A DNA stretch of 64,000 nucleotides, from contig JBKPNZ010000024.1 of assembly GCA_046732895.1 (NCBI GenBank), positions 2,943 to 66,942 on the forward strand. Direction: 5' to 3'. The position numbers and the translations under genes are program-made. A model generated the notes under the pieces. The model made no database searches. It was given only the letters and a program-made list of their open reading frames with translations, and had not been told where the DNA came from. Origin of the DNA: Actinomycetota bacterium. Lineage in GTDB: Bacteria; Actinomycetota; Thermoleophilia; Solirubrobacterales; 70-9. Positions 1,801-56,839 of this stretch are shown here, piece after piece. Position 1 is the stretch's first letter; each line of letters starts with the position of its first letter.

Positions 1801-3033
1801 GTGGGAACGTTCGCATTCAGGGCAGTCGATCTTGCGGGAGTCCCCGCCCGAGGCGAGCTGGAGGCGTCCTCCAAGGCTCAGGTGACCGAGCAGCTGCGCC
1901 AGCGCGGGCTGATCGTCTTGGACGTCACCGAGAACAGGGAGGCGTTCAAGCTCGAAAGCGTCTTCCAGCGCTTCAAGAGCGTCAACCTGCGCAACCTCTC
2001 CATCTTCTCGCGGCAGTTCGCCACGCTGGTCGCCTCCGGCATGCCGATGCTGCGCTCGCTCTATACGCTGGAGGACCAGACCGAAGACGAGATGCTGAAG
2101 CCGGTCATCGGCGCTGTGCGCGCCGACGTCGAGGCAGGTAGCTCGCTCCACCAGGCTATGGAAAACCAGCCCGGCGTATTCGACCCTCTCTATCGCTCCA
2201 TGGTTCGCGCCGGCGAGGGCTCCGGCCGCCTCGAGGAAATCTTGGAGCGGGTGGCACATCAGCTCGAGAAAATGGATGCGCTGCGGCGCCAGGTGAAGTC
2301 GGCGATGTGGTACCCCGCAGTGGTCTTCAGCCTGGCCCTCGTCGTGATGATCGTGGTGGTCACGTTCATCGTCCCGGTGTTCGTGGGCATCTTCAACGAG
2401 ATCGCCGCCGATTACCCCGAAGAGGACACGGCGCTGCCACTGCCTACGCAGATCACGGTGGCGGTCTCGGACTTCATCACCGGCAAGTGGTTCGTACTGA
2501 TCCCTTGCATCGCCCTGTCCGTGTACGGGTTTCTTCGTTGGAAGAAGACCGAGCGCGGGCAGGCCCAGTGGGATCAGTTCAAACTACGAATCCCGCGCAT
2601 CGGGGACGTCGTACAGAAGGTGGCCCTCGCCCGCTGGTCCCGCACGTTCGCGGGCGCCATTTCGGCAGGCGTTCCGATGCTGCAGGCGATTCAGATCGCC
2701 GGTGAGACTGCCGGCAACGCAGTCATCCACGAGGCGATGGACGACGTCTATGACTCGGTCAAGCGCGGCGGCTCGATCTCGAAGCCGCTTGCTGATCACG
2801 AAGTCTTCCCGCCGATGGTCTCGCACATGGTTTCCGTGGGCGAGGAGTCGGGTCAGCTCGAAACGATGCTCGAGAAGGTCGCCGACTTCTATGAAGCTGA
2901 GGTGGATGCGAAGATCAAGGCTCTCACCTCGCTGATCGAGCCCCTCATGATCATGATCGTGGGAGGCGTCGTCGGCTTCATCGTGATCTCGATGTATCTG
3001 CCGATCTTCAGCCTCTACGACAAGATCCGCTGA
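1801..3033 (+). CDS. pilC: Type IV pilus inner-membrane platform protein PilC (GspF family)
   Basis: 410 aa with a GTG start. Duplicated GspF-type domain (FSRQFATLVASGMPMLRSL ... VSVGEESGQLETMLEKVADFYE) with hydrophobic TM segments. Sits in pilB-pilT-pilC order. Confidence 0.9.
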   Translation: MGTFAFRAVDLAGVPARGELEASSKAQVTEQLRQRGLIVLDVTENREAFKLESVFQRFKSVNLRNLSIFSRQFATLVASGMPMLRSLYTLEDQTEDEMLKPVIGAVRADVEAGSSLHQAMENQPGVFDPLYRSMVRAGEGSGRLEEILERVAHQLEKMDALRRQVKSAMWYPAVVFSLALVVMIVVVTFIVPVFVGIFNEIAADYPEEDTALPLPTQITVAVSDFITGKWFVLIPCIALSVYGFLRWKKTERGQAQWDQFKLRIPRIGDVVQKVALARWSRTFAGAISAGVPMLQAIQIAGETAGNAVIHEAMDDVYDSVKRGGSISKPLADHEVFPPMVSHMVSVGEESGQLETMLEKVADFYEAEVDAKIKALTSLIEPLMIMIVGGVVGFIVISMYLPIFSLYDKIR

Positions 3034-3084: not shown

Positions 3085-3501
3085 CTAGGCGCGACGGCTG
3101 ATCACGATCCGCCCGACGACCCGTCCGGAGCTCAGCAGGCGGACCCCGAAGCGTCCGCGGCGGTCGGCGAAGATGTCGAACAGGGCTGGGGCGCTGCGGT
3201 CGACTGCCTCGACGAGGCCGAAGCCGTCGAGCTTTACCTGGTCGGAGCGACTGGAGACCACCCTAAGGCGGAGCTGATCGCCCACGTGGAGCTTGACTGG
3301 TGGCCGCGAACGCTCCGCGCTCATCGTCGCCGTAACCAGCCTGCCTCGGGTGCGATCAGGCTCGGCCGAGCGCGTCGTAGTGCTCGACGTGGTCGTGCTG
3401 TCTGTGCCGATCGGTCGCCGGGGAGCCGGCACGAGCACGGCGGCGACCGTGGAGAGCACGAGCATGACCACGAGGACGGCGACAAGGCGGCGGGCAGCCA
3501 T
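3085..3501 (-). CDS. Hypothetical membrane-anchored protein
   Basis: 138 aa. N-terminal TM helix (LVAVLVVMLVLSTVAAVLV), a Ser/Thr-rich linker, and a beta-rich C-domain (VKLHVGDQLRLRVVS...GRFGVRLLSSGRVVGRIVI) reminiscent of small cupredoxin-like folds. No family recognised with certainty. Confidence 0.5.
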   Translation of the reverse strand: MAARRLVAVLVVMLVLSTVAAVLVPAPRRPIGTDSTTTSSTTTRSAEPDRTRGRLVTATMSAERSRPPVKLHVGDQLRLRVVSSRSDQVKLDGFGLVEAVDRSAPALFDIFADRRGRFGVRLLSSGRVVGRIVISRRA

Positions 3502-3657
3502 GCCGCGGGTTAGGTGCCCGCCATCGGACGTGCGTCCAGTAGGGGCCAGCCCCTAGGCGTGCATGAGCCGCGCCACTCACTCATGCGTCCAGAAATGTCC
3601 CAATCCGCTCTAAAGGCGCGCCTGTCCGGGACCGATAGAGGGTCCCGTAAGGGCCAG

Positions 3658-3750
3658 TGTCCCGGTGATAAAAGGCAAACTCGGTGCAAGCCGGGGGCGC
3701 AAAGCCACAGGACTCTCGCAAGGGAGTTGGCTGGGTTACCGCCGGGGTCA
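3658..3750 (+). promoter_or_regulatory. c-di-GMP-I (GEMM-I) riboswitch aptamer in the pilA leader
   Basis: The sequence is CCCGGUGAUAAAAGGCAAACUCGGUGCAAGCCGGGGGCGCAAAGCCACAGGACUCUCGCAAGGGAGUUGGCUGGGUUACCGCCGGGG. It has the GGCAAAC element, a P2 hairpin CUCGGU/GCCGGG capped by the GNRA loop GCAA, and GCGCAAAGCC. It also has a P3 hairpin capped by GCAA, GGGUUACCG, and a closing P1 stem CCCGG/CCGGG. This is the same element order as the V. cholerae Vc2 aptamer. It ends about 70 nt upstream of the pilA ATG. Confidence 0.75.
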
Positions 3751-3820
3751 CAAAAAGACTTCCGATGGCTGATGGTCACGGGGCTCTGGCAAGGAAAAGG
3801 AACCCAAGGAGGGTACCCCC

Positions 3821-4270
3821 ATGATCCAGAAGCTCCGCGAACGGAGTTCAAGCGAAGGCGGTTTCACCCTGGTGGAGCTGCTGGTCGTCATGCTGATCCT
3901 CGGACTGCTGGCGGCAATCGCGATCCCGTCGTTCTTCAACCAGCGCGATAAGGCCAAGGACTCCAGCGCAAAGGAAGCCGTCCGTACCGCGCAGACGGCG
4001 ATGGAGACGTACTCCACCGACCACAACGGCAGCTACTCACTGGCTGACGAGGCTGCGTTGGTGAATATCGAGCCAACGCTGAACGACGTCAACTCAGACG
4101 GTCGCTTGCATGTTGACGAGGCTACCGACACTGCCTACACGATCACGGTCGACTCGACCAACACGCCGAACACGTTCAGCATCGCGCGTGACGCTGACGG
4201 CAACCTGACGTACGACTGCGAGGAGCCCGATAACGACGGCTGCCCGTCGGGTGGCTGGGGCGGCGAGTAA
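3821..4270 (+). CDS. pilA: Major type IV pilin
   Basis: 149 aa. Class III signal peptide MIQKLRERSSSEG|FTLVELLVVMLILGLLAAIAIP with Gly-1, Phe+1 and Glu+5. C-terminal Cys pair (DCEEPDNDGC). AAGGAGGG Shine-Dalgarno upstream and its own hairpin terminator downstream. Confidence 0.9.
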   Translation: MIQKLRERSSSEGGFTLVELLVVMLILGLLAAIAIPSFFNQRDKAKDSSAKEAVRTAQTAMETYSTDHNGSYSLADEAALVNIEPTLNDVNSDGRLHVDEATDTAYTITVDSTNTPNTFSIARDADGNLTYDCEEPDNDGCPSGGWGGE

Positions 4271-4324
4271 GCGCCAATCCGAAACAACGGACCTCCCAGT
4301 CTGAATCCAGACCGGGACGAAGCG

Positions 4325-4352
4325 AAGGGCGGGCCGCTAAGGCCCGCCCTTC
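4325..4352 (+). terminator. Hairpin terminator after pilA
   Basis: Perfect 12-bp stem GAAGGGCGGGCC-GCTA-GGCCCGCCCTTC, followed by GTCGTTCC. Located 55 nt after the pilA stop. Confidence 0.6.
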
Positions 4353-4449
4353 GTCGTTCCGTGGCTGCGCGGCACGCCTGCACGAACCTATGAATCCGCG
4401 GTCATCCCACTCAAGGCTTGACGCCATCCGCCGATGTAACGGCAGACGC

Positions 4450-5925
4450 ATGCGCGCTCCAGCCCACAATCCGCCCCGACCGCGCCGCCGCCGCGTGAGC
4501 GACGAGCACGGCTTCGCTACCGCGACTGTGCTGCTCATGATGCTGGCGGCCTTCGCGGTCGTGACGGTCAGCGTCACCGCTTCGATTGACGCCCAACACG
4601 GCACGATCCGAGACCAGCGCACTAAGTCGGCTTTTGGCGTGGCCGAGGCCGGTGTTGCGCAGGCTCTCCTGAACTACAACGGCGGCTTCTCCCCTGCCGA
4701 CACGAGTCCCTGTCTGACGCCGGTCGGCAACCCGGCAAACACCGTCCAGCCGCGCGTGACGCAGAATGACGGGTGGTGCGCAGCCGTCACCGGCACCAGC
4801 GAATCCGGCACCTTCAGCTACCAGGTCTGCCCCCGGTGGTCCGAATCAACACAGACGTGTCTGACGAGCGGCGCGGCCACCGGCGCTCTGAACATCGTCT
4901 CCAGCGGGGCCGCGAACGGGGTGGGCCGGCGTATCGACGTCATCGCGAAATCGGCCGGCGGCTCGCAGATCTTCCTCGACGCCGGGGTGAAGTCCCAGAC
5001 CAACATCACCCTCGACTCGAACGCCGAGATTCACTCGCCATCGTCGGCCGGCGGCAACATTGCGCTCGCTTCGACGAGCACTAGGCTGTGCGGAACATCG
5101 ACCGTGGGACCCAGCGGAACGGCCACGGGCACCGGCCTCTACACCAGCGATGTGGATTGCCTCCCTCCGGCCCTGAGCCTTTCGAGTGTCGGCCATCAGA
5201 CCGTGAGCCTGCCCCCGGTCAACCAGGGCGATGCGGGTACCGTCAACGACAACTGCCGGATTCGGGCCGCTGTCACCGGAACCGCCTCCTGCACAGGGGG
5301 GGATTTCAGGGATCTGATCAGCGGCAGCACCAACAACGTCTCCTGGAATCCGGCCACGCGCGTCCTCGATCTCTCGGGTCAGAAGACATCGCTGACACTC
5401 ACCGGGAAGACCTACAGCTTCTGCCGGCTCACGATGTCGCAGAACTCATCGCTTTACGTCGCTGCCACGAACCCCAAGGTCAGCATTTTCTTCGACTCGC
5501 CGGAGGCCTGCGGCCTGCCGCCCTACAACACCACGACCGGCACCCTCCAGAAGGCGACTGCTCAGATGTACTTGGAGAGCAATACGCGCATCACTGCGGC
5601 CAACGGCCAGGCGCTCGGGCTCTACTTCGTCGGCTCGCCAACGATCCGGACCGGCGTGCTGATGAGCAGCAATAGCGACGGCAACGCAAGCTGCGTGCAG
5701 AACTTCGTCATCTACGCGCCCCTGACCGACATCGAACTGAACTCGAACTCGACGTACTGCGGCGCGATCGCAGGCAAGTCCATCCGCATGGACTCAAACG
5801 CGAGGTTCCTCACCAACGACAACGCGCGCTCAGTCATCCTCCCTGGTGGTTCGCCTCATTATGTGAAGAGCAAGTTCGTCGATTGCGCTGCGGCGTCGTC
5901 ATCGCCTCCGAACGCCGGGTGTTGA
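4450..5925 (+). CDS. Large PilX/GspK-like minor pseudopilin lacking Glu+5
   Basis: From ORF 4390..5925. The N-terminal hydrophobic segment EHG|FATATVLLMMLAAFAVVTV looks like a prepilin site but has Thr at +5. The ~440-aa C-terminal region is rich in Ser/Thr/Gly/Asn. The start is uncertain (ATG 4390, ATG 4450 or GTG 4495). Confidence 0.6.
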   Translation: MRAPAHNPPRPRRRRVSDEHGFATATVLLMMLAAFAVVTVSVTASIDAQHGTIRDQRTKSAFGVAEAGVAQALLNYNGGFSPADTSPCLTPVGNPANTVQPRVTQNDGWCAAVTGTSESGTFSYQVCPRWSESTQTCLTSGAATGALNIVSSGAANGVGRRIDVIAKSAGGSQIFLDAGVKSQTNITLDSNAEIHSPSSAGGNIALASTSTRLCGTSTVGPSGTATGTGLYTSDVDCLPPALSLSSVGHQTVSLPPVNQGDAGTVNDNCRIRAAVTGTASCTGGDFRDLISGSTNNVSWNPATRVLDLSGQKTSLTLTGKTYSFCRLTMSQNSSLYVAATNPKVSIFFDSPEACGLPPYNTTTGTLQKATAQMYLESNTRITAANGQALGLYFVGSPTIRTGVLMSSNSDGNASCVQNFVIYAPLTDIELNSNSTYCGAIAGKSIRMDSNARFLTNDNARSVILPGGSPHYVKSKFVDCAAASSSPPNAGC

Positions 5926-5932
5926 GCGCACC

Positions 5933-6499
5933 ATGGGTTTGCCGACATCCCTCACCGGCGTTAGGCGGGACGAGGACGGCTTCACGCTCGTCGAGCTCCT
6001 GGTCGCCATCTCGATCGGACTGATTGTTCTCGGCGCGGCGGTGATGGTCTTCACCGCGGGCGTACGCAGTCAGCTACGGGCCGACTCTCAGAGCGCCGCC
6101 GTGCAGCAGGCGCGCACCACGATGGAGCGCCTCGTCCGAGAGCTGCGCCAGGGCTCCGGACTGGCGCCTGGGACCACGCCCACTTCGACACAACTCTCCT
6201 TCATCACCTACGTCCACAGCACCTGCACCGGTGTCCCGTCGAGCACCGCGACGCTGTGCGGCGTCACATACGCGTGCAGCGCCAGCACGTGCACCCGTCG
6301 CGTCTCGAGACCGGACGGTTCCTCGCCGGGCGCGGCCGTGAAGGTTGTTACGGGCCTGTCCAGCGCCAACGTCTTCGCCTACTCACCCAGCGCCGCGGCC
6401 CCGACCTATGTCACCGCCACAGTGCGCCTGCCGTCGTTCGGCGGCGGCAACGCGATCACCCTCAGCGACGGTGCTGCCCTGCGGAACGTGAGCGGTTGA
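5933..6499 (+). CDS. Minor pilin (PilW-like), prepilin-type N-terminal methylation motif
   Basis: 188 aa. RRDEDG|FTLVELLVAISIGLIVLGAAV with Glu+5. Confidence 0.8.
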   Translation: MGLPTSLTGVRRDEDGFTLVELLVAISIGLIVLGAAVMVFTAGVRSQLRADSQSAAVQQARTTMERLVRELRQGSGLAPGTTPTSTQLSFITYVHSTCTGVPSSTATLCGVTYACSASTCTRRVSRPDGSSPGAAVKVVTGLSSANVFAYSPSAAAPTYVTATVRLPSFGGGNAITLSDGAALRNVSG

Positions 6500-8095: not shown

Positions 8096-8875
8096 GTGAG
8101 AGCGATCAACGAGACCGTGCCAGCCATCATCGCCTTTCCCATCGGACTCCTCCTCGGTAGCTTCGTGACCGTCCTCGCCCACCGAGTCCCTCGGCACGAA
8201 TCGTTCGTTGCCGGCCGGTCGCGCTGCCCGGACTGCGGCGCTCAGATCGCTGCATATGACAACATTCCGGTGCTGTCGTGGCTGTGGCTCCGAGGACGCT
8301 GTCGCTCCTGTGGAGAGCGCATCTCGGCCCGCTATCCGCTCGCGGAGCTTGGCTTGGGTCTCCTTTACCTCGGGACGCTCCTTGCCCTCGGGACCGACGA
8401 CGCGGGGCAGCTCGTCATGGGGCTGGTCCTGTGCACGGTGCTTGTCGCGGTCACTCTTACCGACCTGGAGTTGCGGATCATCCCGAACGCACTAGTTCTC
8501 GGGGGCAGCGTCGCTGGGCTGATCCTCCTTGCCGTCGCGGGTCCCGCTGCGCTGCCTGCGCACCTGATCGCAGCCGGCCTCGCCGGTGGCGTGCTCTTCG
8601 TGATCGCGCTCGCGTATCCGCGCGGGATGGGAATGGGAGACGTGAAGCTGGTCGCGATGATGGGCCTTTATCTCGGGCGCGCTGTGGCGCCCGCCCTGCT
8701 CGTCGCATTCGCTGCGGGAGCCATCGTCGGTCTGGCCATGATCGCCCGGATGGGCGCCGACGCGCGCAAACGCGCCATCCCGTTTGGGCCATTCCTTGCC
8801 TTCGGAGGCGTTGTCGCCCTTTGGTTCGGCGACGCCATGGTCGACTGGTACCTCGACACCTTCAGCGGGGGCTGA
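8096..8875 (+). CDS. pilD: Prepilin peptidase / N-methyltransferase (A24 family)
   Basis: 259 aa with a GTG start. CPDCG...CRSCG zinc motif, multiple TM helices, and Asp-containing A24 motifs (LTDLELRIIP, GMGMGDVKL). Confidence 0.9.
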   Translation: MRAINETVPAIIAFPIGLLLGSFVTVLAHRVPRHESFVAGRSRCPDCGAQIAAYDNIPVLSWLWLRGRCRSCGERISARYPLAELGLGLLYLGTLLALGTDDAGQLVMGLVLCTVLVAVTLTDLELRIIPNALVLGGSVAGLILLAVAGPAALPAHLIAAGLAGGVLFVIALAYPRGMGMGDVKLVAMMGLYLGRAVAPALLVAFAAGAIVGLAMIARMGADARKRAIPFGPFLAFGGVVALWFGDAMVDWYLDTFSGG

Positions 8876-8946
8876 CGGCCGCCACACCGCCGGGCTCAAG
8901 GAACAGCCGCGGGGAGCCGATTCAAGGGGAGAGTCAGAAGCGGATC

Positions 8947-10041
8947 ATGCAATTCCTTTCCAACTCAAAGACGAACACAATCGTGGGCCTCGACATCGAG
9001 GCCGGCAGCATTGCCGCCACCGAGGTCAGCCTGAACGGTGCCGCACGAGTGACCGGCTTTGGGGTTGCGCCACTTGGGCCGGGGATCTGCCGGGATGGTG
9101 AGATCACGGCTCCTGAAGAGCTGGGTGATGCGCTCAAGGAACTCTTCGCACAGCACAAGCTTTCGCGGTCAGTCCGGGTGGGCGTGGCAAACCAGCGCGT
9201 CGCGGTGCGCTCGCTTCGCCTCCCGCTGATCGATAACGAGGACGAGCTCGAGACCGCGATCCGCTTTCAAGCGCAGGATCACATTCCGATGCCGCTCGAG
9301 CAGGCCGTGCTCGACTGGCAGCTCGTGGACCGAGTTCGCGACGCGGAGGGCGGGGGAGGTCATGTGGACGTGGTCGTCGTCGCCGGGCGCCGCGACATGC
9401 TCACAGGCGTCATGGGCGGGATTCGGGCGGCCGGCTTGCGGCCAGTTGGAATTGACCTGTCGGCCTTCGGAATGCTCCGCGCCTTGGCCGACAGCCCGCA
9501 GGGTGCCGCATATCCCGACATCGCCGGAAACCCGGCCGCGGCGGTCGCTCAGGCCACGCTCTTCTGCAACATCGGCGATGTCATCAACCTTGCTGTGGCG
9601 CGCGGTTCGACCTGCCTGTTCACTCGGATCGCCTCGTTCGGGATCGAGGGGATGGCCCAGCGGCTTGCCGAGACGAAGCAGCTCAAGCTCGAGCATGCAC
9701 GCCAATGGCTTCTTCACGTTGGCCTCGACGTCGATCCGCAGACTGTCGAAGGCGATCCGGAGATGGTCGCGGCGACCCGCGAGGTGCTGGCCGAGGGTGC
9801 GTCCAGGGTCGCTGACGAGCTTCGGCTGTCGCTCGAGTTCTACGGCGCGCAGGAGGGAGCCGTCCCGATCGAAGAGGTCGTCGCTGCCGGCACAGGAGCC
9901 ACCATCCCCGGTCTCGTCGAGACGCTTCAAAGCAAGCTCGGGTTGCCCTTCCGCGTCGGCCGACCCGTGTCGCTTGGGCATTTGGACGAGCAGACCGCCG
10001 CCCGCCTCACCCTGTCATACGGTCTGGCGCTCGAGGAGTAG
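8947..10041 (+). CDS. pilM: Type IV pilus assembly protein PilM (actin-like ATPase fold)
   Basis: The in-frame ATG at 8947 (MQFLSNSKTNTIVGLDIEAGSIAATEV...) gives 364 aa typical of PilM. The upstream part of ORF 8278..10041 lies inside pilD in another frame. Confidence 0.88.
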   Translation: MQFLSNSKTNTIVGLDIEAGSIAATEVSLNGAARVTGFGVAPLGPGICRDGEITAPEELGDALKELFAQHKLSRSVRVGVANQRVAVRSLRLPLIDNEDELETAIRFQAQDHIPMPLEQAVLDWQLVDRVRDAEGGGGHVDVVVVAGRRDMLTGVMGGIRAAGLRPVGIDLSAFGMLRALADSPQGAAYPDIAGNPAAAVAQATLFCNIGDVINLAVARGSTCLFTRIASFGIEGMAQRLAETKQLKLEHARQWLLHVGLDVDPQTVEGDPEMVAATREVLAEGASRVADELRLSLEFYGAQEGAVPIEEVVAAGTGATIPGLVETLQSKLGLPFRVGRPVSLGHLDEQTAARLTLSYGLALEE

Positions 10042-12772: not shown

Positions 12773-13936
12773 ATGGAGCTTCGCTTCACCACCGCGGGCG
12801 AATCGCACGGCCCTGGGCTCGTTGCGATCGTCGAAGGCCTGCCTGCAGGCCTCGAACTGGACCGCGCGCGCCTGGATCGCGAGATGGCACGGCGGCAGCT
12901 CGGACACGGCCGAGGCGGTCGCATGAAGATCGAATCGGACTCGGTCGAGATCCGCTCGGGAGTGCGCCATGGGCACACGCTGGGCAGCCCGGTCGCGGTG
13001 CTCGTCGCCAACCGCGACTACGCGAATTGGGAAGAGAGGATGAACCCATGGCCGGTGGACGCCGAGCTCGAGGAGGTCCACACACCTCGTCCCGGACACG
13101 CCGATCTCGCCGGACTTCTCAAGTACGGCCACCACGACGTCCGCAACGTGCTCGAGCGCGCGAGCGCGCGGGAGACCGCGGCCCGGGTGGCTGCGGGCGC
13201 GCTCGCCAAGGAGTTCCTGCGGGCGCTCGGCGTTGGCATCCACAGCCACGTGATCCGGCTCGGGTCCGTCGCCGCTCCCGAGCCCGGCGTGCTGACGCCC
13301 GAGGATTTCGACGACGTCGACGCCTCGCCTGTGCGCTGCCTCGACGCCGCCGCGAGCGACGAGATGGTCGCCGAGATCGACCGCCTGCGAAAGCAGAACG
13401 AAAGCCTCGGCGGGATCTTCGAGGTGCGCGCGTTCGGCCTGATCCCCGGGCTGGGAGCCCACGTCTCCTGGGAGGAGCGCCTCGATTCGCGCCTGGCGCA
13501 GGCGGTCGTCTCGATTCAGGCCGTCAAGGGCGTCTCGGTCGGAGAGGCATGGGAGGTCGCCGCCCTGCCCGGCTCTGAGTCACACGATGAGATCTTCTGG
13601 TCGGACGAGCTCGGTTGGCATCGCCAGACCAACCGCGCCGGCGGGGTCGAGGGCGGCATGTCCAACGGCGAGCCGCTCGTCGTGCGCGGGGCGCTGAAGC
13701 CGATCTCCACCCTCACTAAGCCACTGCGCAGCGTCGACACCGAGACCAAGGAGCCGACTCAGGCCCTGCGCGAGCGCACGGACTCGACGGTCGTTCCGGC
13801 CGCCGGCGTCGTCGGCGAGGCGATGGTCGCGCTGGTCCTCGCCCGCTGCTATCGCGAGAAGCTGGGCGGCGATCACATCGACGACGTCCTCGGTGCGCTC
13901 GCCGCCTACCGGGAGCGCATCGGGTGGCGGCGTTAG
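12773..13936 (+). CDS. aroC: Chorismate synthase
   Basis: 387 aa. The N-terminus MELRFTTAGESHGPGLVAIVEGLPAG and overall sequence are typical of AroC. It is followed by aroK/aroB/aroQ. Confidence 0.93.
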   Translation: MELRFTTAGESHGPGLVAIVEGLPAGLELDRARLDREMARRQLGHGRGGRMKIESDSVEIRSGVRHGHTLGSPVAVLVANRDYANWEERMNPWPVDAELEEVHTPRPGHADLAGLLKYGHHDVRNVLERASARETAARVAAGALAKEFLRALGVGIHSHVIRLGSVAAPEPGVLTPEDFDDVDASPVRCLDAAASDEMVAEIDRLRKQNESLGGIFEVRAFGLIPGLGAHVSWEERLDSRLAQAVVSIQAVKGVSVGEAWEVAALPGSESHDEIFWSDELGWHRQTNRAGGVEGGMSNGEPLVVRGALKPISTLTKPLRSVDTETKEPTQALRERTDSTVVPAAGVVGEAMVALVLARCYREKLGGDHIDDVLGALAAYRERIGWRR

Positions 13937-15465
13937 CTGCGGACACCGGCGCGCTCGTCTTCATCGGATTCATGGGGGCGGGCAAGAGCTCGGCGGCGCG
14001 CATCGCCGGCGAGTCGGGCCTTGAGGCGGTCGACACGGATCTGCTCCTGGCCGACGAGCTCGGCATGCCGATTCCTGAGTTCTTCGCCCGCGAGGGCGAG
14101 GAGGAATTCCGCCGGCGCGAGGACGAGATCACGGTCGCAGCGCTCGAGCGGGGCGATCGCGCGATCGCCCTCGGCGGTGGCGCCGTGCTCTCCGAACGGG
14201 TGAGGGCCGCGCTCGGCCGTCACCTGGTGGTCTGGCTCGACATCTCCGCCGCCGATGCCTGGGATCGGGTAGGGGGCTCCGAGAAACGCCCGCTCGCCGC
14301 GGACCGCGACGAGTTCGAGCGCCTGTACGCGGAGCGCCGCCCGCTCTACTCCGAGCTCGCCGACGCCGTCGTGGTCTCGCCCAGTCGGGAGGTGCTGGCG
14401 CGGGCCATGCCCGCGCTGGTCGCAGCGCGCGAGGTTCGCGTTGCGCGACTTCTGTGGGCGGCGAGCGCCTCGGGCGACTACCCGGTGTGGGTGGGGCCCG
14501 GGATTCTCGGCGAGGCGCCCTGGCCGGTATCCGGCCGGCGCTTCTGCGTCACCGACACCACGGTCGCCCGCCTTCACCGTGACCGAGTGGCTCCGGTCGA
14601 GCACGTGATCGAGCTCGAGCCGGGCGAGAAGGCGAAGACGATGGCCGAGGCCGAGCGCGTCCTGCGCGCGCTCGCCGAAGCGGGCATGACGCGTTCGGAC
14701 CACCTCGTGGCGCTCGGGGGCGGCGTTGTGGGCGATCTGACCGGCTTCTGCGCCGCCACCTATCAACGGGGTGTCCCAGTGGTGCAGGTACCGACCACGC
14801 TCCTGGCGCAGGTGGATTCCGCCTACGGCGGCAAGACCGGGGTGGACCTGCCCGAGGCGAAGAACTACGTCGGCGCCTACCACCTGCCGGCAGGGGTTCT
14901 CGCGGACACCGCGATGCTCGCAACCCTGCCCGCGGAAGAGATGGCCGCCGGTTACGTCGAGGTGCTGAAGACCGGCCTCCTTGCAGGGGGCTCGGCTTGG
15001 GAGAGGGTTCAGGGACTCGGGCGCCTCGATGCGGGGCGTCTGGCCGGTGTCGTCTTCGACTGCGCGCTGACGAAGTCAGAGGTCGTCGCCGCGGACGAGC
15101 GCGACGCCGGCCGCCGCCAGATCCTCAACCTGGGTCACACGGTGGGCCACGCGATCGAGGCCGCCACCTCGTACCGGCGCTACCGTCACGGCGAGGCCGT
15201 CGGCCTCGGCCTCCTGGCGGCGCTCCGCCTCTCCGGAGCCGACGATCTGCGCGGCACGGTGCGCGACCTGCTCGCCCAGCGGGCCCTGCCGGTTCGCCTC
15301 GACCAGGAGGTCGGCATCGACTCGGTGCTCGAATCCGTCGAGCGCGACAAGAAGCGGACCTCGGAGGGCGTGGAGTTCGTCCTGCTCGCGCGTCCCGGAG
15401 AGCCCCTCACGGGCCAGCGCGTGGATCCGGGTAGCCTCCGGGCGGCGGTGGAGGAGCTGCAATGA
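13924..15465 (+). CDS. aroKB: Bifunctional shikimate kinase / 3-dehydroquinate synthase (fused AroK-AroB)
   Basis: Single 513-aa ORF with a GTG start overlapping the aroC end. Residues ~1-170 carry Walker A GFMGAGKSS and DTD (AroK). Residues ~175-513 carry GGGVVGDLTGFCAATYQRGVPVVQVPTTLLAQVDSAYGGKTGV and LGHTVGHAIE (AroB). Confidence 0.88.
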   Translation: MAALAADTGALVFIGFMGAGKSSAARIAGESGLEAVDTDLLLADELGMPIPEFFAREGEEEFRRREDEITVAALERGDRAIALGGGAVLSERVRAALGRHLVVWLDISAADAWDRVGGSEKRPLAADRDEFERLYAERRPLYSELADAVVVSPSREVLARAMPALVAAREVRVARLLWAASASGDYPVWVGPGILGEAPWPVSGRRFCVTDTTVARLHRDRVAPVEHVIELEPGEKAKTMAEAERVLRALAEAGMTRSDHLVALGGGVVGDLTGFCAATYQRGVPVVQVPTTLLAQVDSAYGGKTGVDLPEAKNYVGAYHLPAGVLADTAMLATLPAEEMAAGYVEVLKTGLLAGGSAWERVQGLGRLDAGRLAGVVFDCALTKSEVVAADERDAGRRQILNLGHTVGHAIEAATSYRRYRHGEAVGLGLLAALRLSGADDLRGTVRDLLAQRALPVRLDQEVGIDSVLESVERDKKRTSEGVEFVLLARPGEPLTGQRVDPGSLRAAVEELQ

Positions 15466-19101: not shown

Positions 19102-19302
19102 CGCCCCTCGGCGCGCGGGTACCTTGCGTTCAGGCCTGGCGACCGTCAGCGTCGCCCGCTTCCGCTAAAAGCGATCAAGCCAGTCCACGGACCCCTGGGG
19201 GGCCTCCGTTCGGGCGGTTCCATCGCAGGCACAACCGCAACCTCCGGAAAGGGATGTGAATGACGCAGCCTGCACCCATTGATCAGCTCTGGCGGTGCCC
19301 TC

Positions 19303-20181
19303 ATGCCTACTGAGGCACCGGAAAGGCAAATCTCGACACCGACCCGTCGGGCGCCGATGGAGGCGCGCCGGAACGGCCACGCGAGCCCGAGCAATCGCGC
19401 TCACGAGGAACTGCTCCTACGCCGCTACGCGAAGACGCACGAGCCTCACCTGAAGGAGGAGCTCGCCGAGCGGTTCATGCCGCTGGCGCGCTCGCTGGCG
19501 ATGCGATACCGAGGTGGCTCGGAGCCGCTCGAGGATCTGATCCAGGTGGCAAGCCTGGGATTGGTGAAGGCGCTCGACGGCTATGACCCGGCGCTGGGTC
19601 GCTCCTTCACCGCGTATGCGGTGCCCACGATGCTGGGCGAGCTGCGCCGCCACTTCCGCGATCGTGTGTGGAACGTTCACCTCCCGCGCGGTCTGCAGGA
19701 GCGGGCGATGGACGTGAGCGATGCGATCCAGAAGCTGAGCGACGAGCACGGCGCCTCACCGACGGTCGGGCAGATCGCCGAGAAGCTCGAAGCCTCCGAG
19801 GAGGAGGTTCTGGAGGCGCTGCAGGCCGATGCCGCGCGGCGCACGCTCTCGCTCGACGTGCCGCAGGGCCGGGACGACGCCGAATCCGCCCCGATGATGG
19901 AGGCGATCGGCGGCAGCGAGCTCGGCTATGAGGCCGTGGAGTCGCAGCTGGCCGCGACCCAGGCGGATCTCGACGAGCGCGAGCTGCTCGTGCTGCGCCT
20001 GCGCTTCGGCCGTGATCTCAACCAGTACGAGATCGGCCGCCGCCTGGGCGTCTCGCAGATGCAGATCTCACGAATCATGCGGCGTGCACTGCGCAAGCTG
20101 CTGGACGCGGTTCAGGACGACGAGCTGCCTGAGTCGATGCGGCAGGCCGTCTCTGAGAACGGCGTCCCCGCCGCCGTTTGA
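19303..20181 (+). CDS. RNA polymerase sigma factor, SigB/SigF-like (group 3 sigma-70)
   Basis: Region 2 (DLIQVASLGLVKALDGYDP, TAYAVPTMLGELRRHFRD), region 3, and the region 4 HTH (QYEIGRRLGVSQMQISRIMRRAL). The start is uncertain (TTG 19279, ATG 19303 or a later ATG). Confidence 0.85.
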   Translation: MPTEAPERQISTPTRRAPMEARRNGHASPSNRAHEELLLRRYAKTHEPHLKEELAERFMPLARSLAMRYRGGSEPLEDLIQVASLGLVKALDGYDPALGRSFTAYAVPTMLGELRRHFRDRVWNVHLPRGLQERAMDVSDAIQKLSDEHGASPTVGQIAEKLEASEEEVLEALQADAARRTLSLDVPQGRDDAESAPMMEAIGGSELGYEAVESQLAATQADLDERELLVLRLRFGRDLNQYEIGRRLGVSQMQISRIMRRALRKLLDAVQDDELPESMRQAVSENGVPAAV

Positions 20182-31668: not shown

Positions 31669-31742
31669 GGGGCCGGGGAGGATTCGAACCTCCGTCCTCG
31701 GGATTAAGTGTCCCGCGCTCTGCCTGCCTGAGCTACCGACCC
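31669..31742 (-). tRNA. tRNA-Lys(CUU)-like gene with A at position 33 and C73 discriminator, no encoded CCA
   Basis: The hand-folded cloverleaf is GGGUCGG UA GCUC AGGCAGGCA GAGC G CGGGA CACUUAA UCCCG AGGAC GGAGG UUCGAAU CCUCC CCGGCCC C. All four stems pair, with one U4-G69 wobble. Confidence 0.75.
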
Positions 31743-56768: not shown

Positions 56769-56839
56769 CTCCCCCGGGTGGATTCGAACCACCAAGACTT
56801 GATTAACAGTCAAGCATGTTGCCGTTACATCACGGGGGA
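56769..56839 (-). tRNA. tRNA-Asn(GUU), no encoded CCA
   Basis: The hand-folded cloverleaf is UCCCCCG UG AUGU AACGGCA ACAU G CUUGA CUGUUAA UCAAG UCUU GGUGG UUCGAAU CCACC CGGGGGA G. U33, anticodon GUU and the G73 discriminator are as expected for tRNA-Asn. Confidence 0.85.

Follow-up and report, generated by a model that had tools for sequence, protein, structure and literature searches.

In a 64,000-nucleotide (nt) stretch of DNA from an uncultured soil bacterium of the order Solirubrobacterales (Thermoleophilia, Actinomycetota; contig JBKPNZ010000024.1; hereafter the window), the leader of the major type IV pilin gene pilA almost certainly contains a genuine class I cyclic di-GMP (c-di-GMP) riboswitch, of the type also called GEMM-I. 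The closing helix of its aptamer, P1, shares strands with a second, long-range fold of the leader, and the resulting strand exchange is well supported and taken with good confidence to be real. In the reading developed below, which is less certain, ligand binding would lower translation initiation. The window was previously described from its letters alone, and this sequence-only reading is referred to where the results bear on its claims.

The aptamer upstream of pilA

The entire 64-kb window was searched with the Rfam covariance models of 4227 families. RF01051 (c-di-GMP-I) matched in full (model positions 1-87 of 87) at positions 3664-3743 of the plus strand, with 63.2 bits against a gathering score of 35 and an E value of 5e-10. 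Such a match is far beyond chance. When 3450-3900 was scanned permissively on both strands, c-di-GMP-I was the sole notable match and no c-di-GMP-II (RF01786) match appeared at E<=10. The elements of the aptamer are as follows.

3661..3746, + strand: c-di-GMP-I (GEMM-I) aptamer including the closing P1, as given by the RF01051 match, covariation and conservation of the ligand-contact triad
3661-3667 with 3740-3746, + strand: P1, 7 base pairs (bp), CCCGGUG with CGCCGGG
3674-3680, + strand: GGCAAAC, read in the sequence
3680-3695, + strand: P2, CUCGGU-GCAA-GCCGGG, a 6-bp stem (3680-3685 with 3690-3695) with a GCAA loop
3697-3706, + strand: GCGCAAAGCC, a motif named in the sequence-only reading
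within 3703-3737, + strand: P3 with a GCAA cap (UCUC-GCAA-GGGA), read in the sequence
3733-3741, + strand: GGGUUACCG, a motif named in the sequence-only reading

The GEMM-I pairs G3675-C3700 and C3676-G3699 are present, as are the internal-loop strand AAA at 3677-3679 and the linker A3701-A3703. The aptamer lies 74-77 nt upstream of the pilA ATG (3821) on the same strand.

These results agree for the most part with the sequence-only reading. Every aptamer motif it named was found, it had predicted a plus-strand RF01051 match above threshold at about 3655-3750, and it had assigned the element to class I rather than class II. Its estimate of about 70 nt to the ATG was close to the measured distance. 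The P1 helix it described, CCCGG/CCGGG, is present and is longer than was proposed, with 7 rather than 5 bp. Its placement of the leader in the lowest-GC intergenic stretch of the locus was incorrect: the GC fraction is 0.61 at 3601-3800, compared with 0.57 at 2801-3000 and 0.59 at 4001-4200.

Conservation was assessed in two sets of loci. For the first, 43 Thermoleophilia genome loci were scanned downstream of pilC with Rfam, and an aptamer of clan CL00126 was found in 22. All 21 complete aptamers (the window and 20 related genomes) were located 63-119 nt upstream of an orthologous pilin whose N-terminus reads M[VIL]QKLRER..GFTLVELLVVML. For the second, 80 metagenome loci were selected with the pilin protein as sole query and scanned with a covariance model built from the genome copies. 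This yielded 70 aptamer matches, nearly all 52-88 nt before the pilin start; most of the loci without a match simply had no upstream DNA. The same aptamer-then-pilin arrangement is thus seen in about 90 related loci, and on these counts the pairing is the rule in the Solirubrobacterales/Thermoleophilia clade, at about 90% of pilin leaders. One metagenome contig carries tandem pilin genes, each with a complete riboswitch leader (L138:548-647 and L138:1361-1461); the d-boxes of these two leaders, an element introduced below, differ slightly (CGGGGCUCUGGC and CGGAGCUCUGGC).

The helices of the aptamer are maintained by compensatory change. Among 22 sequences, 96% of the alignment cells of the aptamer structure (P1, the two G-C/C-G pairs, P2 and P3) were paired and 15 of the 29 pairs showed compensatory changes. 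None of 500 shuffles reached the observed values, and when partners were slid the pairing fell to 31-47% (29-49% over both sets). The 62 distinct metagenomic sequences gave 95.8% of cells paired and compensation in 17 of 29 pairs, in an alignment that was fitted to the covariance model and so somewhat favours the structure. In an alignment of 76 leaders, P1 was paired in 98.1% of cells with 4 of its 7 pairs compensatory; the P2 loop was GNRA in 76/76, and the AAA linker was invariant. The sequence-only reading had expected compensatory changes in P1, P2 and P3 of orthologous leaders, as seen here.

A chance match, or a decaying aptamer relic without function, is effectively refuted by this conservation and covariation and is given next to no weight. 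A few leaders of the clade have lost the aptamer, which is hence dispensable, and this is what such an explanation would draw on. It is opposed by the E value of 5e-10, by retention at about 90% across many species, by compensatory changes in every helix and by invariant ligand-contact bases. The aptamer itself is ordinary; it is a full member of RF01051, and any Rfam-based annotation pipeline would flag such sites.

Ligand and variant families

The predicted ligand contacts in the window are G3674, A3701 and C3739, equivalent to G20, A47 and C92 in the numbering of the Vc2 aptamer. A47 and C92 are taken by us, from the Vc2 crystal structures, to be ligand-contact bases, and these roles agree with the naming and the consensus of RF03167. 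Across the leaders, G20 is present in 75/76, A47 in 76/76 and C92 in 76/76. Position 20 is the accepted selectivity position among cyclic dinucleotides (PMC9262584). The sequence-only reading had derived c-di-GMP selectivity from a G at this position, and the base is indeed G; the register was off, position 20 being the first G of GGCAAAC (G3674) and not the G directly 5' of GCAAAC, although both are G. The window copy carries G20, A47, A91 and C92, the same as Vc2, and scores best on RF01051. Since the triad is near-invariant and the window copy canonical, c-di-GMP is the predicted ligand.

Sensing of another ligand, for instance 3'3'-cyclic GMP-AMP (cGAMP) or a further dinucleotide, is considered very improbable. 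The variants that could suggest it are found among the relatives. The gathering score of RF03167 (c-di-GMP-I-GGC) was exceeded by 14 related leaders, for which this family is the best-scoring one, position 91 is split between A (37 leaders) and G (38 leaders), and two leaders depart from G20. The GGC variant was characterised from the Rfam consensus of RF03167. This family is of the same clan, and CUGCC and a modelled outer helix are common to its consensus and the orthologous leaders that exceed its gathering score. Its consensus has G47 (GACGCGAAG), whereas the window and all 76 leaders have A47 (GCAAAG), and membership of RF03167 was rejected on this basis. The RF03167 matches of the relatives are, by this comparison, a matter of overall similarity and classification spill-over, without the defining change of the variant. 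A c-AMP-GMP riboswitch (GEMM-Ib) was likewise rejected: it needs A20, where the window has G3674 and 75/76 leaders have G. The best score on RF01051 with the four Vc2-like bases also stands against a different ligand.

The RF03167-matching leaders include L012, L013, L014, L018, L019, L021, L024, L026, L027, L028, L036 and L044. Most leaders of this group carry G91, and automated annotation would mislabel them as the GGC variant. The two departures at position 20 are of different kinds. A distant pilin leader (L040:6190-6268), from the metagenome-assembled genome (MAG) "uncultured Actinomycetes bacterium MFD03323.bin.1.10" with a PilC 49% identical, has a GEMM-I aptamer (RF01051, 57.8 bits) with A20 (GAGCAAAC), the base linked with cGAMP selectivity in GEMM-Ib. 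Its 119-nt platform differs from the others and has no d-box. The sole leader of the 76 with C20 (AACGCAAAG; L010:5803-5883) is normal in the remaining aptamer and in its platform; ligand affinity or selectivity may be altered in this copy.

Strand exchange and its proposed output

The region around and downstream of the aptamer contains the following elements.

3653..3664, + strand: a-box GCCAGUGUCCCG, 5' strand of the a:d helix; the box ends in the 4 nt with which the P1 5' strand begins
3743..3764, + strand: b:c helix, P1 3' strand CGGGG (3743-3747) with c-box UUCCG (3760-3764), from RNAalifold and covariation
3779..3790, + strand: d-box CGGGGCUCUGGC, the switching strand, able to pair with the a-box or with pilA codons 2-6
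3802..3814, + strand: Shine-Dalgarno (SD) hairpin ACCC-AAGGA-GGGU around AAGGAGG (3806-3812), from RNAalifold
3826..3837, + strand: e-box CCAGA-A-GCUCCG, pilA codons 2-6, a near-copy of the a-box and complementary to the d-box

The a-box (consensus GCCAGUGYCCYG, overlapping P1) and the d-box, which lies about 30 nt upstream of the AUG, match the aptamer in conservation. The a-box is kept in all leaders, and the d-box is the most conserved element of the platform. RNAalifold, applied to 21 full leaders, predicted both the a:d and the b:c helix. In the 76 leaders, a:d was paired in 90.3% of cells with compensatory changes in 4 of 12 pairs: a G-C pair is replaced by A-U in L024, and the usual U.U mismatch by C-G in L090, L100 and L086. 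The b:c helix was paired in 83.5% of cells, with 2 of 5 pairs compensatory, and the CCGA of the c-box was invariant in the 21-leader alignment.

P1 competes with a:d for 4 nt of the a-strand and with b:c for the b-strand, which makes the P1 fold and the a:d/b:c fold mutually exclusive. In the models, opening of P1 would allow b:c to form. The ensembles forced into either state have practically the same energy (-106.5 and -106.3 kcal/mol, mean of 74 leaders), and the helix sums of the two folds are -25.3 and -24.4 kcal/mol. Forcing P1 lowered the d:a pairing probability from 0.30 to 0.02. The SD hairpin shows many compensatory changes in the RNAalifold alignment (GC, UA and AU at one pair, for example) and was paired in 84% of cells across the 76 leaders; it is identical in both modelled states.

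Four leaders (L083:640-668, L085:503-531, L108:641-669 and L120:422-446) no longer carry the aptamer, nor the b and c boxes. The a-box and d-box are kept in each of them, joined by a loop of 3-7 nt. The minimum free energy (MFE) fold of L083 is the a:d hairpin; L120 retains the hairpin, though its sequence differs. The aptamer seems to have been lost independently at least two or three times, in leaders nested among relatives that carry it. In effect, the loop of a pre-existing 5' helix houses the aptamer.

No intrinsic terminator was found on the plus strand of 3300-4500. The sequence-only reading had found neither a terminator nor a classical anti-SD helix, and both statements stand; an expression platform nevertheless exists, in the form of the long-range strand exchange. 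The c-box (CUUCC) was considered as an anti-SD element and rejected, because its U and C positions are not conserved and only CCGA is. A c:d hairpin was also rejected as partner of the d-box in the ligand-bound state: it was paired in 79.7% of cells, not above shuffles (246/500), and had an ensemble probability of 0.10.

The candidate partner of the released d-box is the e-box. Duplex folding gave a d:e helix of 11 bp, CGGGGC.UCUGG with CCAGA-A-GCUCCG, with A3831 bulged and -17.7 kcal/mol, compared with -19.9 kcal/mol for a:d in the window. A register of 7 bp was discarded as incomplete in favour of this duplex. Across leaders, 86.1% of d:e cells were paired, compared with 26-53% when partners were slid, and three compensatory events were counted; compensation in d:e is seen in L034, where d3 changes from G to C and CUC to UUG, and in L122, where d6 changes from C to U and AAG to AAA. 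The choice of synonymous codons is restricted over the e-box. Leucine codon 5 is CUC in 61/63 cases, compared with 44% background, and is never CUG, which makes up 48% of the leucine codons elsewhere in the same pilin genes. Arginine codon 6 is CGU in 44/70 cases, compared with 29% background. The MINKLRVRAQ pilin subgroup has no CCAG codons and offers codons 6-9 (GCGUCAGGGCUC) to the d-box. Binding to the d-box was stronger for the first 45 coding nt (-15.0 kcal/mol) than for later segments (-12.1 kcal/mol). With P1 forced, the d:e probability rose from 0 to 0.52 and the accessibility of +4..+18 fell from 0.47 to 0.27, with a drop in 63/74 leaders. Constructs ending at +18 exaggerated d:e, and the folding values were taken from constructs extending to +75.

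The proposed mechanism is as follows. Without ligand, a:d and b:c would form, the first pilA codons would be free and pilin would be translated. Binding of c-di-GMP would stabilise P1, which would capture the a-strand. The released d-box would then form 11 bp with codons 2-6 (CCAGAAGCUCCG), within the ribosomal landing zone, and translation initiation would drop, giving an OFF switch. Translational shut-off through d:e is given an even chance, and the whole chain, from aptamer to OFF output, is judged evenly balanced as well.

Several observations weigh against this mechanism. The d:e helix is based mainly on conserved complementarity, with its three compensatory events, and the leader sequences are phylogenetically related, so that p-values are inflated. 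Predicted accessibility of the SD and AUG is the same in both states. In the window leader, accessibility of +4..+18 is low in both states and rises slightly when P1 is forced (0.15 to 0.29); the predicted drop is missing there because the e-box can also form a local hairpin, CUCCG-CGAA-CGGAG. The unconstrained ensembles are ambiguous (d:a 0.30, d:e 0.37). Conservation of the e-box extends to aptamer-less leaders, so the riboswitch alone does not account for the constraint on it. For L085 and L108, both without an aptamer, the MFE fold pairs the d-box with coding sequence, which weakens the argument that expression is constitutively ON after aptamer loss.

The local hairpin, a further alternative partner for the e-box, spans 3833-3846 in pilA codons 5-9 (L-R-E-R-S). 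It is found in the "RERS" pilin subgroup and is absent from the "RQRMA" subgroup. Arginine codon 8 is AGG in 32/76 leaders, and AGG accounts for only 4% of the arginine codons in the other genes of the window.

The same points bear on an explanation in which riboswitch and strand exchange are real and the output is another, namely mRNA stability or premature (Rho) termination, with either sign, ON or OFF. The a:d helix would then be a free-standing 5'-terminal hairpin that, for example, stabilises the mRNA, binds a protein or governs Rho access, and c-di-GMP would remodel it. Equal SD and AUG accessibility in the two modelled states and the missing loss of accessibility in the window leader fit such an output, as do the paired boxes of the aptamer-less leaders, with the altered hairpin of L120 among them. 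The predicted transcription start (see below) places the a-box about 5-8 nt from the 5' end, and class I riboswitches can work in either direction and through several mechanisms (PMC6366702). Against it, the ligand-bound 5' end would still be paired through P1, so 5'-end protection should differ little, and there is no intrinsic terminator. It also leaves unexplained the complementarity of the d-box to codons 2-6, the synonymous-site constraint and the second coding segment used by one pilin subgroup. An output of this other kind is regarded as rather unlikely, and translational control through d:e is retained as the working proposal.

Candidate promoter, gene context and relation to known systems

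A candidate promoter precedes the leader.

3611..3638, + strand: candidate flagellar/WhiG-type promoter; -35 TAAA (3611-3614), 16-nt spacer, -10 ACCGATAG (3631-3638)

Promoters were scored against a -35 TAAA and a -10 GCCGATAA at a spacing of about 15-16 nt, with no more than 2 mismatches (PMC8325347). The window promoter has 10/12 matches to TAAA-N15/16-GCCGATAA. Of 73 related leaders, 70 reached at least 9/12 and 59 at least 10/12, while shuffles mostly gave 6-7; the form common to the leaders is CTAAAG-N15/16-nCCGATAG. The -10 element ends 13-14 nt before the a-box, and the start predicted from the motif is near 3645-3648, which would place the a-box at the very 5' end of the mRNA. Assignment to the WhiG type is considered probable from the motif and its recurrence.

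In Rubrobacter, of the sister class Rubrobacteria, the (RsiG)2-(c-di-GMP)2-sigma-WhiG switch governs type IV pilus genes through promoters of this type, and RsiG and WhiG have been reported in three Thermoleophilia genera; the paper on this system does not mention a riboswitch (PMC8325347). Were the same switch to operate here, high c-di-GMP would stop pilA transcription (through RsiG-sigma-WhiG) and translation (through the riboswitch) in the same direction. This coherence of promoter and riboswitch is a weak argument for the OFF sign. It weighs on the other side that no whiG or rsiG gene is present within the 64-kb window. The sigma factor at 19279-20181, which belongs to the SigB/SigF/SigG family, was rejected as WhiG (226 bits for SigB/F/G and 102 bits for FliA/WhiG, where the cut-off is 190), and a regular-expression search of the window for GGDEF/EAL proteins gave nothing convincing. 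That one pilin mRNA of an abundant, largely uncultured soil order carries two c-di-GMP tiers of the same direction, a WhiG promoter and an aptamer in the loop of a 5'-terminal anti-sequestor helix whose 12-nt strand is passed to codons 2-6, is proposed tentatively, and is somewhat more doubtful than not.

Other features were noted near the promoter. A perfect inverted repeat, TAGGGGCCAGCCCCTA, lies at 3539-3557, about 70 nt upstream of the -35, and GGGG-N4-6-CCCC palindromes occur at the same place in L083, L085, L108 and L120. The repeat is a candidate operator in the divergent promoter region. Directly upstream of the -35, many relatives share a conserved box, GATGTACACCCC, where the window has AAATGTCCCAAT. 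The sole other match of the window to the flagellar/WhiG consensus is at 643-670 (TAAA-N16-GACGATTA, 10/12); it ends 10 nt before the pilT start codon (681) and would give a nearly leaderless pilT transcript.

The genes around the leader are listed below.

2-598: pilB, 3' part
681-1793: pilT
1801-3033: pilC
3085-3501, - strand: small divergent open reading frame (ORF) without a family match
3821..4270, + strand: pilA, a 149-residue type IV pilin with prepilin motif GFTLVE; Pfam N_methyl (PF07963), TIGR02532
4390-5925 and 6256-8031: ORFs of the pilus cluster without a significant family match
5933-6499: minor pilin

PF07963 and TIGR02532 (prepilin-type cleavage/methylation) match pilin residues 11-35. 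Genes pilM, pilN and pilO follow the minor pilin, making this a type IVa pilus cluster. The exact pilin protein was found on JGI metagenome contigs with the same neighbours, and the nearest relatives of PilC (65-84% identity) are Solirubrobacterales/Thermoleophilia MAGs. The sequence-only reading was accordingly right to name the downstream gene a type IV pilin and its context actinobacterial. The PilM ORF at 8278-10041 encodes 587 residues, with the PilM domain confined to residues 232-585; either PilM carries an N-terminal extension of about 230 residues that matches no family, or translation actually starts further downstream. Directly after the pilus cluster come shikimate-pathway genes at 12773-15465, chorismate synthase and then a fused shikimate kinase/3-dehydroquinate synthase. 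Genes for tRNA are located at 31669-31742(-) and 56769-56839(-).

The aptamer resembles Vc2 and other GEMM-I members in its G-C/C-G pair and GNRA-capped hairpin, AAA linker, second hairpin, closing P1 and G20/A47/C92. It differs in its host, a deep-branching actinobacterial order, and in its target, the major type IV pilin. It also differs in that the P1 5' strand, and not the 3' strand alone, switches, and the aptamer lies within the loop of a 5'-terminal helix. Among riboswitches on a major pilin, Cdi-2-4, the class II ON switch of Clostridioides difficile pilA1, is the only one studied (PMC6366702). Both place a c-di-GMP riboswitch directly on the major type IV pilin gene in a monoderm lineage, but Cdi-2-4 has an unrelated fold and acts by transcription antitermination (PMC6366702), whereas the present element belongs to class I, lacks a terminator and probably acts as a translational OFF switch. 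The statement in the sequence-only reading that pilA1 is under a class II switch was confirmed, so that class I on a pilin is a different solution.

Its wording "convergent" is reasonable, with the reservation that the general association of GEMM-I with pilus genes dates from 2007 (PMC1950547). In that work, GEMM was linked to the pilus assembly genes pilM, pilO, pilQ and pulF in a set mainly from Proteobacteria, Firmicutes and Planctomycetes (Weinberg 2007, PMC1950547). The likeness lies in class I aptamers standing with type IV pilus genes, in Geobacter and others; the difference is that these are assembly genes in Proteobacteria, in a list that contains neither a major pilin nor Actinobacteria (PMC1950547). 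Part of the Geobacter set is cGAMP-sensing GEMM-Ib (PMC8835794). The RsiG-WhiG system of Rubrobacter has in common with the present locus the c-di-GMP control of type IV pilus genes in basal actinobacterial classes and the same promoter consensus. It is a protein anti-sigma mechanism acting on transcription, while here an RNA sensor is found on the transcript of such a promoter. A literature search, of incomplete coverage, returned no report of a class I riboswitch on an actinobacterial pilin gene.

The element is a known RNA class in a new example, and its interest is in the clade-wide platform and the possible second layer of c-di-GMP control. To our knowledge, nearly all that has been learnt about c-di-GMP signalling in actinobacteria concerns protein effectors (BldD, RsiG-WhiG). 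At this locus, an RNA effector is the rule before the major pilin gene across Solirubrobacterales/Thermoleophilia, organisms that are common in soils and hardly cultured. The studied members of the c-di-GMP-I class that we know of mostly use terminators; the leader described here would, as modelled, provide a compact and comparatively well-defined translational platform, for which the natural aptamer-loss variants of the clade are built-in controls. If the promoter assignment is true, a single gene would be read by two c-di-GMP sensors, a directly testable case of layered second-messenger control.

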